This document shows positions 69 through 8,988 of a stretch of 17,878 nucleotides of DNA, in pieces. Numbering within the stretch: the first letter of the stretch is position 1; every line of letters begins with the position of its first letter. Both the position numbers and the translations under genes were made by a program. Origin of the DNA: a virus. Taxonomy: Duplodnaviria > Heunggongvirae > Uroviricota > Caudoviricetes. The stretch is from IMG/VR virus record IMGVR_UViG_2531839195_000006; one strand, given 5' to 3'. A model generated the notes under the pieces. It was not told where the DNA came from and made no database searches. It worked only from the letters and a program-made list of their open reading frames with translations.

Positions 69-2993
69 TTGTTCAGTAAGGCATTCCTTCGTAAAATCAG
101 CATGTTTTTTGCACGACGGAAACCGGCAGCCATGAAAATCTGTCTTTATCATACTCTGAATCCTGACACGATCCCGGGTTATAAAAAATTTGCACAGGCT
201 ATTGCCACCGATAACTTTGTTCAGGCTGATGTTCGTAAAATTGACACCAATCTTTACCGCGCCCGGCTCAGTATCCGGGACCGATTACTGTTTTCGCTGT
301 ATCGCTACCACGGTGAAACTATCTGCCTTGTTCTGGAATATATTCGCAATCATGCCTATAACACTTCACGTTTTCTTCGCAGAAACGTGGTGATTGATGA
401 AGGGCGCTTACAACAACAACCAGTGCCGGATCCTGTTGATATCGCGACTGAAGCGCTGACGTATATCAATCCGTCTCATGGGCGTTTCCACCGCCTGGAT
501 AAAATGCTGTCCTTTGATGATGATCAGCAGGCACTGTACGAACACCCGCTACCGCTGGTGATTGTTGGCTCGGCGGGAAGTGGTAAGACGGCGCTGGTAC
601 TGGAAAAAATGAAGCAGGCTGCTGGTGATATACTGTATCTCAGCCTTTCCTCATTTCTGGTGGAAAAAGCGCGTACTCTCTATGACGCTTCAGGGGAAGG
701 GAGTGAGGTACAGAATATTGACTTTCTTTCGCTGACGGAATTTCTGGAAACTCTGCGCATTCCGGAAGGCAGGGAGGTGACTTTCAGTGCGTTCAGCGAC
801 TGGCTGCCCCGCAACAGGGCTATCGCCGCACTGGGGGCTGCCCATACCCTGTATGAGGAGTTCAGGGGCGTGATCGGTGCGGTTGCCTCCGGGAATGGGC
901 CGCTGTCCCGGGAGGCGTATCTGTCACTGGGGATACGGCAGTCGCTCTATGGCATGGAGGACCGCCCGACGGTCTATGTCCTGTTTGAACGTTATATCGC
1001 ATGGCTGAAACAGTCGCATCAGTATGACAGTAATCTGCTCAGTCATCAGTATCTTTCGTTGGCAACTCCCCGTTATGATGTCATTTTTGTTGATGAAGTT
1101 CAGGATATGACGCCTGTTCAACTGCAACTGGTACTGAAAACGCTACGTCATCCCGGTCAGTTTTTACTCTGTGGTGATGCCAATCAGATAGTTCATCCGA
1201 GCTTTTTCTCATGGAGTTCGCTCAAAAGTCTCTTTTTCCGGCAGCAACAGGGAAACGACACAACCGTTAATATCCTGCAGGCGAATTACCGTAACGGGCA
1301 CCACGTCACTGCACTGGCTAACCGGTTGCTGAGACTCAAACAGGTCCGCTTTAGTGCTATTGATCGGGAAAGTCACCATTTTGTCAGAAGCTGCGGTCAG
1401 GCAGAAGGGACCATCCGGTTGCTGGACGATAGGGAAGAGACAAAGCAGGAACTGAATGCCAAAACCTCACTTTCGAATCGTGTAGCGGTCATTGTGATGC
1501 ATCCGGAACAGAAAGCACAGGCGCGATGCTGGTTCAGTACGCCGCTGGTCTTTTCGGTTCAGGAGGTTAAGGGGCTGGAATACGAAACGGTGATCCTTTA
1601 CAATATAGTAAGCGCTGCCCGGCAGGCATTTGATGATATTTGCGAGGGTCTTACACCGGCTGATCTTGAGGGCGAGGCCCGTTATTCCCGTCCGCGGGAC
1701 AGGCAGGATCGTTCAGCGGAAATCTATAAATTTTTTACCAACGCGCTGTATGTTGCGCTCACCCGTGCTAAACACAATGTGTATCTTGTTGAACAGCAGG
1801 TGGAGCATCCTCTGTGGAGTCTGCTTGCGCTCACGCATCAGGAAGAGCCTCTGAATCTGCAGGAAGAGATTTCCAGCCGTGATGAGTGGCAGAAAACCGC
1901 ACATCTGCTTGAAAAACAGGGGAAGCAGGAGCAGGCGGACACCATCCGTAGCCGGATCCTGCAGACATCTGAGATGCCATGGCAGATTATCACCGCAGAG
2001 GATGCACGACAGTGGAAACAGCATATCCTCGCAGGTACAGCCGATAAAACCATACAACTGCAGGCGCTGGAGTACAGTCTGATTTATTCCCTGTTCCCGC
2101 TGTATAATGCACTGTACCGGGAAGATTTTAAGCCCACAAGGCAGCCCAGAACGAAGACTCTGCAGTTACTGGAGCTGAAGTATTTCCGGCCATACTCAAT
2201 GAATAACCCGGTTGCCGTGTTGCGGGATATTGAACGTTATGGTGTTGATCACCGTTCGCCGTTTAATCTTACTCCGCTGATGTCAGCAGCCCGGGCAGGT
2301 AATATTGCACTGGTTCAGTTACTGCTGGAGCGTGGTGCAGATCCCTTGCTGACCGGTAATGACGGGCTGGCGGCTTATCATCAAGTTCTGTCAGCGGCGG
2401 TCAGTACGCCCCGTTATGCGCAACAGAAAAGTGCGCAGTTGTATACCCTGCTGAAACCTGAAAGTCTGTCACTGCAGGTGGAAGGACGCCTCATCAAACT
2501 GGACAACCGGCAGATGGCAATGTTTCTGGTGATCCTGATGCAGGCGCTGTTCCACACGCATCTGGGAAGTGCTCTGTTTTTTTCGGAAGCCTTCAGTGCG
2601 GCACGACTGGCAGAGTGTGTGGTTCATCTTCCTGAAGCGTTGCTGCCGGAACGCCGCAAACGAAGGAGTTATATCAGCAGCCAGCTCTCTCAACATGAAG
2701 TTAACAGCAAAAATCCTTATGGAAAAAAGCTTTTTCTGAGGCTGAACCACGGACAGTATATTCTTAACCCGGGGCTTAAAATAAGGAAGGGTGATGTGTG
2801 GCGCGCGGTTTATGAGTTGCAGTCACCGGAAGATCTGGGGCATGATTTGCAGACTTATCTGCAGGATATGTCACCGGAATTAGTGGATATGCTGGGAGGG
2901 AAGAAGGGTTTTTACGAACGCAGTGAAAAGTCTGTCGGATACTGGGTGGGGGGATCCGTCGTGCCGCTCAAAAAGCGTGAGGTTCCGTGCTGA
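69..2993 (+). CDS. SF1 UvrD-like helicase / P-loop NTPase with C-terminal ankyrin repeats (974 aa as the maximal ORF)
   Basis: Walker A GSAGSGKT at aa 167-174 (nt 567-590), matching UvrD motif I. Motif [11 protein letters not shown] near aa 340. UvrD C-terminal motif [10 protein letters not shown] near aa 565. Ankyrin-type repeats ([41 protein letters not shown]) near aa 735-775. Start is uncertain: the ORF opens after a TGA at 42-44, and the candidates are TTG 69, ATG 102 and ATG 132, none with a strong RBS. Confidence 0.75.
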
Positions 2994-3656: not shown

Positions 3657-4178
<522 letters not shown>

Positions 4179-4180
4179 CC

Positions 4181-4214
4181 GAACCGGACGTGCACCTTTC
4201 AGCGCATCCGGCTC
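4181..4214 (-). ncRNA. Group II intron domain V (catalytic hairpin)
   Basis: Minus strand GAGCCGGATGCGCTGAAAGGTGCACGTCCGGTTC: 34 nt with the AGC triad, a GAAA loop and the GGTTC closing motif. Confidence 0.85.
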
Positions 4215-4219
4215 TCCAT

Positions 4220-5743
4220 TTAAATGCTGGCGAACGCCATTGCCACTTCTGTAAAGCGCGATGTATACGTGTTTCTGGTCTCCGTCCTCAGATAGGGATT
4301 ACCTTCGGGTAGCCGCCAGCGGAACAGCTTCTTGCCTTGCCCCACCAACCGGTACAGTATTTCGCCGCTGAGCTTGCCGTGATTGGTTTTACCAAATAAA
4401 ACCCACGTTTTGCTCTGACCCGGTTTCGGTGATTTACACCACCACCTCATCAGGGAAGCGATACCTGTACGGTATTTGCGGGCCAGCCAGTGAGCCAGCT
4501 TCCAGAACACGACACGGTCGATATAACTGAAGACTTTGGCCTTAAAATCAACGAACTGATAGAACATGGCCCAGCCTTTCAGTTTTCGGTTGAGTTGTTC
4601 AGCCATATCGACTTTGCTTTCACTGTAGTTGCCTGATAACAGTGCTGTCAGCGATGCGGCGAAGTTTCTGGCTTTCTCCTGCGGGATCGTTGAGACCACT
4701 CGCATCTCGCCATAACGACTGCGTTTGCGAATGATCCTGTGCCCCAGAAAGATAAAGCCGTCATTAACATGGGTGATTTTAGTCTTATCCATGTTCAGCC
4801 TGAGTTTCAGACTGCCTTCGAGCACACCCCGACACTCCTCCCTGATGGCTTCCGCCTGTGCTTTGGTGCCTTTGACGATGAGGACAAAATCATCGGCATA
4901 GCGGCAGTACGCCACCGCGGGTTTCCACTGCCAGTTTTCTCTGACCGCCGTACTTCGGCCCCGTTGGATACTGTTATTCCAGTACCACCGATCTTTTCTG
5001 GCTTTCCCGCTCAGGTAGCGCTCATGCAGGTATTGATCGAACTCATTCAGCATGATGTTCGATAATAGCGGCGATATAACACCGCCCTGTGGCACACCTT
5101 CACTGGCCGCCCGAAAGAGACCGACATCGATATGTCCCGCCTTGATGGTTTTCCACAGCAGAGTCATGAAACGTGCGTCACTGATCCTGCGGCGTACAGC
5201 CTTCATCAGCAGTCGATGATGTACGGTGTCGAAGTAACTGGACAGGTCGCCTTCAATCACCCAGCGTCCCCGGGTTTCACCACAGTCTGTGAGCTGTAAT
5301 TTCACCGTGCGGATCGCGTGGTGGACACTGCGCTCAGGCCGGAAGCCATATGAGAGCGTATGAAAATCACTCTCCCATATCGGCTCCATCGCCATCAGCA
5401 TGGCCCGCTGAACAATACGATCCCGCAACGCGGGGATACCCAGTGGTCGCAGTTTGCCGTTGCTTTTAGGGATGTAAACCCGTCTGGCGGGCAAGGGCTG
5501 GTAGTGGCCTGAGAGTAATTCATCCCTGAGGATTTGCAGCTCAACAGCCAGTCTGGCCTGTAGCATTGTTTTGCTCACGCCATCAGCGCCGGGGGTATGG
5601 GCCCCCTTTGATGAAAGCGTGATCCGCGCCGCTTCAGCCAGCCATTCTGGTTGTGTTATCAGACGCAGCAGCCGTTGAATCCGTAGGGACGGATCGGTGG
5701 CTGCCCATGTGGCAAGCTTGCGTTGCATTTCGCTGATTATCAA
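4220..5743 (-). CDS. Group II intron-encoded reverse transcriptase/maturase (507 aa, no HNH endonuclease domain seen)
   Basis: RT motifs RRVYIPKSNGKLRPLGIPALRDRIVQRAM, SYGFRPERSVHHA and YCRYADDFVLIV, followed by a maturase (X) domain. The C-terminus has no cysteine/histidine HNH signature. Confidence 0.9.
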   Translation of the reverse strand: MIISEMQRKLATWAATDPSLRIQRLLRLITQPEWLAEAARITLSSKGAHTPGADGVSKTMLQARLAVELQILRDELLSGHYQPLPARRVYIPKSNGKLRPLGIPALRDRIVQRAMLMAMEPIWESDFHTLSYGFRPERSVHHAIRTVKLQLTDCGETRGRWVIEGDLSSYFDTVHHRLLMKAVRRRISDARFMTLLWKTIKAGHIDVGLFRAASEGVPQGGVISPLLSNIMLNEFDQYLHERYLSGKARKDRWYWNNSIQRGRSTAVRENWQWKPAVAYCRYADDFVLIVKGTKAQAEAIREECRGVLEGSLKLRLNMDKTKITHVNDGFIFLGHRIIRKRSRYGEMRVVSTIPQEKARNFAASLTALLSGNYSESKVDMAEQLNRKLKGWAMFYQFVDFKAKVFSYIDRVVFWKLAHWLARKYRTGIASLMRWWCKSPKPGQSKTWVLFGKTNHGKLSGEILYRLVGQGKKLFRWRLPEGNPYLRTETRNTYTSRFTEVAMAFASI

Positions 5744-6385: not shown

Positions 6386-6809
6386 CATGTGCTGACGTAA
6401 GTAAAGTCAGCCACCCACAGCTGGTCAGGTCGTTCTGCCACGAACTGACGGTTTACGCGGTCGCCTGCGGCAACGGCTTTCCGGCTGATGGTCGTACGGA
6501 CCTTTTTACCCCGGAGAACACCGGCAAGTCCCATAACCGCCATGAGACGTGCCACAGTGCATCTGGCCACTCTGATACATTCCCGTAACAACTGACGCCA
6601 GACTTTACACCGTATACCTTGTGATTTTCATCGTATACGCGCTGTATCTCTTTCTTCAGCCAGTCATCGCGCTGCGCACGGGCACTGCGTTTATCCGGAT
6701 GATGTCGCTGTTGCTGACAGTGGTAATACGTTGACGGGGCAATATGCAGTTCGCTGCATAGCGGTCCGCCCCCGTACTGCTCACGCAGCTTATCCAGCAG
6801 TGGCATCAT
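6386..6809 (-). pseudogene. IS629 orfB, 5' portion (exon 1), frameshifted
   Basis: [68 protein letters not shown] continues in another frame as ...LRECIRVARCTVARLMAVMGLAGVLRGKKVRTTISRKAVAAGDRVNRQFVAERPDQLWVADFTYVST. The frame change is near 6598-6612. Confidence 0.75.
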
Positions 6810-6814
6810 TTTTT
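6806..6814 (-). promoter_or_regulatory. Programmed -1 ribosomal frameshift window of IS629 (A6 run overlapping orfA stop and orfB ATG)
   Basis: Minus strand reads TGG AAA AAA TGA TGC; the orfA stop TGA (6808-6806) overlaps the orfB ATG (6809-6807). This is the usual IS3-family OrfAB fusion arrangement. Confidence 0.6.
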
Positions 6815-7132
6815 CCAGAGGCGGTCGAACTCCGCCTTCGCAAAATAAGCGGAAGCCTGGCGAAGGATATCGTTACTGCGGCGCAGTTCACGATTTTCAC
6901 GCTCCAGCTCTTTCAGACGCTGACGTTCAGCGGTGGTGAGCCCTCCATCACCGCCCCCGGTATCCCGCTCATGCTGGCGACCCCAGACACGCAGAGTCTC
7001 CGGCGTACAGCCAATCTTTGGGGCAATGGAACAAATTGTCGCCCATTGTGAGTCATATTCGCCCTGACTTTCCAGAACCATACGGACTGCCCGTTGACGG
7101 ACTTCGGGGGAAAAACGAGTATTTTTAGTCAT
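6806..7132 (-). CDS. IS629 OrfA (IS3-family transposase N-terminal DNA-binding protein, 108 aa)
   Basis: [50 protein letters not shown]...[39 protein letters not shown] at 7132 is preceded by GAGAAAGAGG. Ends ...TGG AAA AAA TGA. Confidence 0.85.
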
Positions 7133-7257: not shown

Positions 7258-8988
7258 TCAGGCTACCTCAACTCTCTTTTCAATAGGGTCAAGGTTTTTC
7301 ATCCCGCCAAGATCTTCTGCCACCTGTTTGAGCATTGACCTTGTTGATGGCGCATCAATTTTTGCACCTGCAGGCATCGCCTTTTCAACATTGCGATAAA
7401 GCTGGTCGCTTCGTTTCATCAGCGCAGACATTCTTCCATTGACCGTATCAATAAACTTGTCGCTCATACCAAGAGCATCTTTTGCACCGGAAACGCGATC
7501 AATTATCTCACCCGCGCCCTGTGCTAGCTGCCTGATTGCTTCATTTTCCTGCACCTGTAGAGCAGAACCCGCACGGGACTTGATTGCTTGCTCAACTGCC
7601 TTGTATTGCTCGTTCCCGGAAAAGTGTGAAGGGAGTAATGAATCAACATTAAGCCTTTCAGCAGACTCCAGAACTTCAGCCTGAGGATTGATATCTAGTT
7701 CATCAAGCGATGAAGCGAGATTTGGCCTTTTTTGTGCTGCTACTGTGCGAACGACTTCCTCTGGGTTCTTCGTCGCAGGCGTCATTGGTACACCTTGTGC
7801 TACTCTTGCCTCTGCGGCATGAACCGCAGGATTTGTTGCTGCAGCGGCATCACCGGAGAATGGTGATGTTTCTGTTGGCGCAGTGGTCGCTCTCTGTGCA
7901 GATGTTTTATTGCCACTAATTATATTTGATGCACCACGAACACCACGGGTAACGCCATTTATCAGGCCATGCGTAGCAATGCTAAGTCCGGCATTAATAG
8001 CGGCATTTTCGGCAAAATCACCCCGTTGATTCGCCGCGTCAGCGAGAGAACCAATGACCATGTTTCCAGCTACACCTGCTCCAGGAACAAGATAACCGCC
8101 TATTGACTCTCCAGCTTGCGCGTAGGGGTCTGTCGGTCTGTCTACTGGACGATAAACATCATCCAATACTTTTGGCCCCCCAAGCCCCTGACTGATTGCA
8201 TTAATCAGACTTGCGCCACCCTGCAATACGTCAAATGGTATGTTTACCAGACCACGACCAGCCTGTTCTGCAATTTGCCCTGCACTTTGACCACCAGTGA
8301 GCCAATCGCCAGCTTGTTGCATCAATGATGGTTCTTCCCGTGTTGGTGCATTATTGGCCTGATTAACTGTTTGTTGCTGAACAGGTTTCGGTGCGACAGA
8401 ACTTACGGGTTGAGGTGGCTGCTGACTGGCTGCCTGCTGCTCAATCTGAGCAAATGGATTATTTGGGTCTGACTGCACACCTGATGCCGATACTTGTTCG
8501 GATGACTGTACTTCCAGTTGTGCAAACGGGTTGTTAGGGTCTTGCTGAGGATGTACCTTTGCAGAGGTGGCGCGCTGTTCGACTGTTGAGTCTGTCACCG
8601 GGTCACCAGCCCATTGAGCAAAGCGATCATCAACGTAACCGCGGCCTTCAGGTCCTGGCGTATATTCACCACGCTTTGCCTTCATAACGTTGCCGGGACC
8701 GTCGTGATAAGCCTGAAGAGAGTCACGCCAGTTACCAAACTGCTGGTACATCTTTGCCAGATAGCGCGCGCCAGCGTCAGCCTGATATTCGGGGTTTTGC
8801 ATTTGCTCATCGGTATAACCCATATCACGCCATGTCCCAGGCATGACCTGAGTCAATCCTACAGCCCCGGCGGAGCTTACTGCGGCAGGGTTGTAAGAAG
8901 ACTCCTTGGCACCCAGTGCAGTCATCAACCCTTCTGGCACACCGTAACGTGCGCCAGCCTGCTCTAACAAATCACGGTAATTAGCCAT
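7258..8988 (-). CDS. Prophage ejection/internal virion protein at the gp16 position, with N-terminal lytic transglycosylase (SLT) domain (576 aa)
   Basis: N-terminus [28 protein letters not shown]...AGARYL is an SLT signature. It is followed by a Q/P/A-rich linker with a tandem DPNNPFAQ(L/I)E repeat. The ATG directly follows the upstream stop. Confidence 0.75.

Follow-up and report, generated by a model that had tools for sequence, protein, structure and literature searches.

CP0234 of the Shigella virulence plasmid, an uncharacterised protein joining a RelE-fold domain, a UvrD-type helicase, an ankyrin module and a novel C-terminal domain

The window analysed here is the whole 17,878-nucleotide stretch of IMG/VR virus record IMGVR_UViG_2531839195_000006, and the subject of this report is the gene at its left end, CP0234 / WP_011114777 of the Shigella virulence plasmid pINV, whose database labels are merely 'hypothetical' or 'UvrD-helicase domain-containing protein'. 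CP0234 is an uncharacterised large protein in which a RelE-fold domain, a UvrD-type helicase, an ankyrin module and a novel C-terminal domain are joined. Literature searches found no papers on this protein or its architecture; a UvrD match in the literature proved to be a different gene, and a HEPN paper was silent on the CP0234 family. An earlier note on this DNA, written from its letters, had described a large UvrD-like helicase fused to ankyrin repeats and proposed it as a candidate single-gene defence protein; the fusion was borne out by motifs, Pfam and Foldseek, but the domain account had overlooked both the RelE-fold domain at the N-terminus and the conserved domain at the C-terminus.

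The CP0234 gene and the domains of its product

The open reading frame (ORF) at 69..2993 on the + strand is real and intact, and comprises 974 codons when counted from a TTG. GenBank and RefSeq place the start of CP0234 at this upstream TTG at 69. A start methionine at nucleotide (nt) 132 (MKI/MRV...; here MKICLYH...) is common to homologues of many taxa, and since the homologue N-termini all lie at this methionine, the likely product is 953 amino acids (aa) long; residues are numbered accordingly below. A full-length AlphaFold2 (AF2) model was built on an alignment of 48 homologues (predicted local distance difference test, pLDDT, 85; predicted template modelling score, pTM, 0.84), and the invariance of motifs and residues was judged in a 48-homologue alignment. 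The features of the gene are as follows.

132..2993, + strand: coding sequence (CDS) of the 953-aa protein, stop codon counted in; start placed by homologue N-termini
132..386, + strand: RelE/YoeB/HigB-fold domain (N-domain), aa 1-85; by fold and invariant residues
348-359, + strand: NHAY motif within the N-domain
387..503, + strand: less conserved linker, aa 86-124; pLDDT 50-75, 38% identity to distant homologues
504..1841, + strand: UvrD-like superfamily 1 (SF1) helicase core, aa ~125-570; by Pfam, Foldseek, motif positions and invariance
513-530, + strand: Q-motif of the helicase core
567-590, + strand: Walker A (motif I) GSAGSGKT of the helicase core, aa 146-153
1092-1106, + strand: motif II DEVQD of the helicase core, aa 321-325
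1170-1187, + strand: motif III CGDANQ of the helicase core
1566-1583, + strand: motif V VKGLEY of the helicase core
1743-1772, + strand: ten-residue motif of the helicase core, aa 538-547
1842..2201, + strand: helical region with TPR-like hairpins, aa 571-690; by AF2 secondary structure and conservation, no family match
2202..2456, + strand: ankyrin module, aa 691-775; by Pfam Ank, Ank_5, Ank_3 and Ank_2, and the AF2 model
2265-2345, + strand: canonical ankyrin repeat, aa 712-738, flanked by degenerate helical hairpins
2457..2837, + strand: arginine-rich alpha/beta C-terminal domain, aa 776-902; pLDDT 90-96, 20 invariant columns
2838..2990, + strand: variable C-terminal tail, aa 903-953; 7% identity, carries the poly-G tract 2948-2953

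CP0234 belongs to the UvrD-like SF1 helicases by its motifs, by Pfam and by two RecA-like domains of UvrD/PcrA/Rep topology. The complete SF1 motif set claimed earlier was confirmed: the quoted motifs were located, the Q-motif and motifs III and V were found besides, and motifs Q, I, II, III, V and VI, the last containing VALTRA, are all invariant or nearly so across the homologues. The Walker lysine is K152, which corresponds to K173 in the TTG-based numbering. Four Pfam models scored above their curated cut-offs (score/cut-off): Viral_helicase1 (39.4/21), UvrD-helicase (37.2/23), UvrD_C_2 (35.6/27.4) and AAA_19 (29.8/25.1). Foldseek searches with the model returned UvrD, PcrA, Rep, FBH1, AdnB and HelD at E ~1e-11 and 10-15% identity, the UvrD, PcrA, Rep and FBH1 matches falling between 2e-11 and 1e-10 at a probability of 1.00; structures of HelD with RNA polymerase (RNAP) were also among the matches, and when the full model was compared with viral structures, matches were restricted to the helicase core. 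ATP-dependent translocation or unwinding is the activity predicted for this core, which at ~445 aa has much reduced accessory 1B/2B regions.

No named helicase accounts for the protein. All NCBIfam helicase equivalogs scored far under their cut-offs (the best, recB, at 35.6 bits versus 696), leading to rejection of an identity as RecB, PcrA, Rep, UvrD or helicase IV; HelD/HelR was likewise rejected, with scores of 21-25 bits where the cut-offs are 419-750. By the earlier note's own account, a close match to a characterised housekeeping helicase would have spoken against its reading; none was found in NCBIfam or, at the identities above, by Foldseek. CP0234 shares with the UvrD/Rep/PcrA-type SF1A enzymes (and with FBH1, AdnB and HelD) the RecA-like 1A/2A core and the motifs Q, I, II (DExx), III (GDxxQ), V and VI (VALTRA), whereas its RelE-fold, ankyrin and C-terminal domains are foreign to those enzymes. 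The CP0234 family is a helicase fused to a toxin-fold effector, and falls in none of the named helicase families.

Residues 1-85 form a RelE-type alpha/beta fold, in which an N-terminal strand and helices are followed by a four-stranded antiparallel sheet. This is the most conserved module of the protein (59% identity to distant members); its invariant residues are K36, R51, E69, H74 and Y76, and four more (Y42, R43, R45 and R80) are nearly invariant. From the alternation of residues along the strands, R43, R45, R51 and E69 are expected on the exposed side of the sheet, beside H74 and Y76 just past the last strand. The active-site layout and catalytic chemistry of RelE and YoeB use Lys, Arg, Glu, His and Tyr residues of this kind. 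Judged by strand order rather than by a computed alignment, the K36/R51/E69/H74/Y76 set would be placed as are E46/R65/H83/Y84 of YoeB.

A profile of the N-domain found this family alone, in 624 clusters among 1.84 billion representatives, and the lengths of all 150 matches listed fit full-length members or fragments of them. Stand-alone N-domain toxins were looked for among these matches: the one short match examined proved to be part of a full-length gene broken by a frameshift, and the other short ones were assumed to be fragments. The N-domain therefore appears to be confined to this architecture. In contrast to the type II toxins RelE, YoeB, HigB, YafQ and ParE, which have two helices before the sheet, it has one; it also differs from them in having neither detectable sequence similarity nor an antitoxin gene, and in being fused to an 870-residue protein. 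Having the RelE/ParE fold without sequence membership and without an antitoxin, the N-domain could at most function in the way of a RelE module, and does not make CP0234 a type II toxin-antitoxin system.

Beyond the helicase core, the helical region at aa 571-690 holds six invariant residues (S581, W586, G597, K598, P616 and W617). CP0234 is an ankyrin-repeat protein through one canonical repeat. The repeats of the earlier note are real, in that Ank (26.1/21.1) and Ank_5 (28.4/27) exceed their cut-offs, but the signal is small: it lies at aa ~705-753, the only part through which PDB ankyrins were matched by the family profile, and the helical hairpins beside the canonical repeat look like degenerate repeats in the AF2 model. 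Ank_2, a two-repeat model, was reached in relatives.

The C-terminal domain carries the motifs PERRKR..YISS..NE and LF.RL..G.Y..NP...W. It had no Pfam match (E<=10), and its sole PDB sequence match was a weak one to the engrailed homeodomain (E=0.0035), a hint only. Some members are longer. In P0340 and P0346 a low-complexity linker is followed by C-terminal DUF1186 and a SEC-C metal-binding motif, and in Endozoicomonas species and one Methylococcaceae genome SEC-C is encoded by ORFs of its own, 0.3-4.5 kb downstream from the helicase gene (L009 ~13876-14019, L015 ~13001-13066 and L057 ~17181-17246); this association is a possible functional link, too rare to assess. P0270, P0358 and P0380 have a C-terminal extension of one or two copies of an unannotated unit of ~75 residues, with the pattern RLV..D..G.L......G.......LP...L..L..WQ..G.V..L......LR.AGF and no Pfam match.

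Purifying selection is uniform over all modules, with identities to distant homologues of 53% for the ankyrin module and 50% for the C-terminal domain, and conservation is even except in the last ~50 residues, which indicates that no fast-evolving sensor is present. The poly-G tract at nt 2948-2953 lies in that variable tail. It has six Gs (G6) in the window against seven (G7) in pCP301; through this difference the last 11 residues are replaced and the product is 953 instead of 949 aa long, and the frameshift is confined to the non-conserved tail. Plasmid records with the G6 allele give no CDS at the position of CP0234, probably because annotation flags the gene as frameshifted.

Distribution of the family and setting of its genes

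More than 4500 proteins matched at E<=1e-5. The family amounts to ~624 clusters at 50% identity and is present in at least 572 GTDB species representatives; distant members retain 45-55% identity over the full length. Full-length relatives occur across Gammaproteobacteria and also in Zetaproteobacteria, Nitrospirota, Chloroflexi, Lentisphaeria and some Beta-, Alpha- and Deltaproteobacteria, and the same architecture is widespread in free-living marine and sulfur/methane-oxidising bacteria. A search of 50,697 phage genomes found no homologue of CP0234. In a neighbour-joining tree, 56 members grouped mostly by taxonomy, into Zetaproteobacteria, Methylococcales, Thiothrix, Chromatiaceae, Oceanospirillales/Cellvibrionales, Alteromonadales and Enterobacterales. 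Horizontal transfers were also seen in the tree: the betaproteobacterial Nitrosomonas (L043 and L058) lies inside Methylococcales, and the alphaproteobacterial Roseospira (L012) inside a Halomonas/Halorhodospira group.

Among plasmids, 116 of the 131 matches were pINV of S. flexneri, S. sonnei, S. boydii, S. dysenteriae or enteroinvasive E. coli (EIEC), the others being replicons of Piscirickettsia, Methylosinus, Deinococcus, Thermus and Polymorphobacter. Nearly all pINV copies are full length and at least 99% identical, few being truncated or fragmented, and the ORF is intact over at least 941 residues in nearly all of them, in four Shigella species. Most of the gene was present in 99 of 5426 complete E. 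coli genomes. Chromosomal copies of E. coli, Enterobacter and Salmonella lie within integrase-bounded islands, either of the CP4-57 type (with YfjJ/'inovirus Gp2', AlpA, antirestriction, RadC and CbtA/CbeA genes) or with a P4 integrase. In the E. coli islands, YagK/YfjJ ('inovirus-type Gp2') and AlpA-like helix-turn-helix genes stand directly upstream of the helicase on the same strand (L003 9454-10017, L004 2992-3447 and L005 9425-9961); the upstream side in pINV is without a YagK/YfjJ or AlpA-like gene, and the divergent shf is found there instead.

All ORFs within four genes on either side of the helicase gene at ~90 loci were clustered by all-against-all BLASTP. No neighbour family was common to loci beyond the same genus, nor was a conserved small partner or antitoxin found among ORFs of at least 30 aa within 500 nt of either end. 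The helicase gene is a solitary, single-gene unit, as the earlier note had held, and a partner-gene or operon model was rejected for want of a conserved neighbour or small ORF. When the neighbours within two genes were taken from 72 non-redundant loci, mostly of environmental Proteobacteria, the 150 ORFs were mainly housekeeping; MFS transporters, LysR regulators, glutamine synthetase, TldD and thioredoxin were the commonest Pfam families, and integrases and transposases were almost lacking. About 10 of these neighbour ORFs matched PADLOC models at 1e-10, several of them generic enzyme families, in a count that has no background control. The Nitrococcus copy is set among toxin-antitoxin genes. 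Outside Enterobacterales there was no sign of residence in defence islands among these 72 loci, for which no background was computed.

PADLOC-DB 2.0 yielded just partial matches to GajB, DRT-helicase, AbiO and Nhi segments, at no more than 44 bits and over at most ~100-135 residues, the GajB models matching aa ~305-425 or 473-553. As these are generic helicase-segment matches only, assignment to Gabija, Nhi, AbiO or another PADLOC 2.0 system was rejected, and no match naming CP0234 was found in NCBIfam, PADLOC or the literature. CP0234 resembles Nhi, GajB of Gabija and AbiO in its SF1 helicase motor, and Nhi also in being a one-gene unit, but Pfam recognised no nuclease domain in it, and outside Enterobacterales there was no sign of an association with defence islands; unlike Gabija, the family has no partner of the GajA type (OLD-family nuclease) beside its genes.

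These results divide the remaining claims of the earlier note. That it could match the gene to no named defence system agrees with the generic PADLOC hits. The mobile setting that it described applies to Enterobacterales, on pINV and in integrase islands, but elsewhere the neighbours are mainly housekeeping. The defence role it proposed is unsupported, and is weakened by those neighbours, the taxonomy-like tree, the even conservation and the lack of a phage homologue. A conserved cellular partner is easier to reconcile than a typical defence-island gene with housekeeping neighbours, a tree that tracks taxonomy, the want of a fast-evolving sensor and the absence of homologues from the phage genomes searched.

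The pINV segment and the composite window

Positions 1..~7276 of the window are Shigella pINV DNA, the first 3300 nt being identical to several S. flexneri plasmids and differing from pCP301 by one G of the poly-G tract. On pINV, CP0234 is divergent from the shf-rfbU-virK-msbB2 cluster. An insertion sequence (IS) remnant of the IS3 family begins a few bases past the CP0234 stop and is followed by an IS3-family element with a group II intron; ospG and ipaH9.8 lie further on in pINV, a few kb from CP0234. The features of the IS3-family element are listed below.

4130..5743, - strand: group II intron inside the IS3-family element; by reverse transcriptase (RT)/maturase ORF and Rfam match
4220..5743, - strand: RT/maturase ORF of the group II intron
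4130..4216, - strand: Intron_gpII, Rfam match
6735..6851, - strand: ALIL programmed-frameshift pseudoknot, retained by the IS3-family element

The remainder of the window (~7277..17878) is a series of ORFs that look intact and strongly match structural proteins of the P22 type, all on the - strand: gp20, gp16, gp7, gp14, tail needle, gp10, gp4, coat, scaffold and portal. The IS elements and prophage of the earlier note are thus present in part as it described them, with IS3-family remnants and a group II intron downstream of the gene; but the prophage block, whose intact-looking ORFs end abruptly at the IS end, is truncated and not decayed. The window is a composite, in which pINV DNA meets the P22-like module at an IS3-family end. 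None of the plasmid or E. coli records searched contained this junction, which would be either an IS-mediated rearrangement or an assembly join. We propose that CP0234 is a passenger on pINV, that it arrived together with island-type DNA, and that all four Shigella species have retained it intact.

A helicase-coupled RelE-type module and competing explanations

We tentatively favour, while allowing that it may well prove wrong, the reading that CP0234 is a helicase-coupled RelE-type module, controlled in cis, which as an RNase or by binding would act on a conserved target in the cell. It would be a self-contained enzyme of four modules, with the TPR-like hairpins and ankyrin module together forming an adaptor. 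The SF1 ATPase would serve as a motor tracking along nucleic acid, and the ankyrin and C-terminal domains would tether the protein to a conserved partner, which might be the translating ribosome, RNAP or a nucleic-acid structure. Output would come from the RelE-fold domain, acting as an endoribonuclease or as a probe that binds the A site or RNA; the remainder of the polypeptide would keep it in check in cis, a task otherwise given to an antitoxin. The net result would be RNA cleavage and translation arrest dependent on ATP and a trigger, that is, a stress or conflict switch; phage infection would be one possible trigger rather than a demonstrated one. Uniform conservation of the ankyrin and C-terminal domains, together with a tree that tracks taxonomy, leads us to infer a conserved partner. 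There is precedent for the parts of this scheme: the regulated effector of Cami1 is a RelE domain, and in Nhi and Gabija SF1 helicases are paired with nucleases. In Cami1, a CARF-RelE ancillary RNase of type III CRISPR systems, the regulator is a CARF domain that binds cyclic oligoadenylate, whereas in CP0234 an SF1 ATPase with ankyrin and C-terminal domains stands in that place, and pINV and the sampled loci have no CRISPR context.

Several points weigh against this proposal. The N-domain had no match at E<=10 to the Pfam RelE, ParE, YoeB or HigB models in 15 members, a PDB profile search with it gave no sequence match, and hhalign against E. coli YoeB, both as a single sequence and as a 20-sequence profile, gave probabilities below 1%; the YoeB profile was shallow, the search for YoeB homologues having given only sequences at least 82% identical. 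With no sequence-level tie to RelE, ParE or YoeB, catalytic equivalence rests on the fold, on residue chemistry and on the strand-order mapping. Members of the RelE fold of the ParE type are not RNases; such activity in the N-domain is a prediction. The usual substrates of the two parts also differ, UvrD-like helicases mostly acting on DNA and RelE on ribosome-bound mRNA. Autoinhibition of the N-domain in cis is, finally, pure conjecture on our part.

We consider it unlikely that the gene is instead a single-gene system dedicated to anti-phage defence (abortive infection), in which the helicase, or else the ankyrin and C-terminal domains, would sense a phage component and the RelE fold or the motor would block infection. 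A toxin-fold effector without antitoxin would suit such a role; SF1 UvrD-like motors recur in defence, as the weak GajB, Nhi and AbiO matches recall, in E. coli few genomes have the gene and its occurrence is patchy, and the Enterobacterales copies on pINV and integrase-bounded islands and the Nitrococcus copy amid toxin-antitoxin genes are in keeping with it. However, the PADLOC matches are confined to generic helicase segments, only a handful of the mainly housekeeping neighbours match defence models, the tree follows taxonomy, no domain is fast-evolving and the phage genomes hold no homologue. Those same chromosomal neighbourhoods and the vertical-like inheritance would agree with an accessory helicase of DNA metabolism (repair, replication-transcription conflict, R-loop removal, or island or plasmid maintenance) in which the RelE fold and ankyrin repeat are non-catalytic adaptors. 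The nearest folds are the DNA helicases UvrD, PcrA, Rep, FBH1 and AdnB, the C-terminal domain is basic with a weak homeodomain-like match, and ParE-type relatives of the N-terminal fold act on DNA gyrase. We nevertheless regard this explanation as rather unlikely: the NCBIfam helicase equivalogs are all far under cut-off, the accessory 1B/2B regions are much reduced, the invariant His/Tyr/Arg/Lys/Glu set is hard to square with a mere adaptor, and the family is too patchy for core repair.

Two further explanations direct the protein to the ribosome or RNAP. In one, which we judge improbable, CP0234 would belong to a previously unrecognised, largely vertically inherited family of proteobacterial surveillance motors: the UvrD-like ATPase would power a RelE fold serving as A-site probe or RNase, and the ankyrin and C-terminal domains would dock it on the ribosome or RNAP, the Shigella copy having come via mobile DNA. 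In the other, which seems to us distinctly improbable, it would be a rescue or recycling motor for stalled ribosomes or RNAP in the manner of HelD/HelR, with the RelE fold probing the A site or RNAP channel and ATP remodelling the complex, RNA cutting not being required. The RelE fold binds the ribosomal A site, HelD-RNAP structures are among the Foldseek matches, the modules are uniformly conserved and the gene lies mostly outside mobile elements; moreover, rare members are fused to DUF1186 and SEC-C, SEC-C ORFs are near in three loci, and the SEC-C domain of SecA binds ribosomes, which is a lead only. This rescue role is built on analogy; the HelD/HelR models score far below their cut-offs, ribosomal and translation genes are not consistently near, and the SEC-C association is rare and carries no statistical test. 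A eukaryote-directed Shigella virulence effector, its ankyrin repeat a host mimic, or a decaying, functionless passenger gene is highly improbable. An effector would be in keeping with the ankyrin repeat, a feature typical of secreted effectors, and with the nearby ospG and ipaH9.8 of pINV, while the poly-G frameshift of the window allele and the absence of a CDS from such records would suit decay; yet free-living marine and sulfur/methane-oxidising bacteria have the same architecture, the ORF is intact in nearly all pINV copies, and the frameshift affects the non-conserved tail only.

The RelE fold of this family is invisible to sequence models, and current toxin and defence annotation pipelines consequently miss it. 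A defence role, if true, would make CP0234 a new single-gene system. Surveillance would make the family a new class of RNA or translation quality-control factor, and the surveillance motor described above would open a new rescue or quality-control route for stalled translation or transcription, or for inhibitor protection. If the cis-controlled, helicase-coupled RelE-type module that we favour is correct, the family would represent a widespread toxin-fold RNase-helicase fusion that needs no antitoxin, and the principle of Cami1, a RelE effector regulated in cis, would be extended from cyclic-nucleotide control to control by an ATP motor. It would also provide a function for one of the few large, intact and unnamed genes that the virulence plasmids of EIEC and of every Shigella species have conserved.

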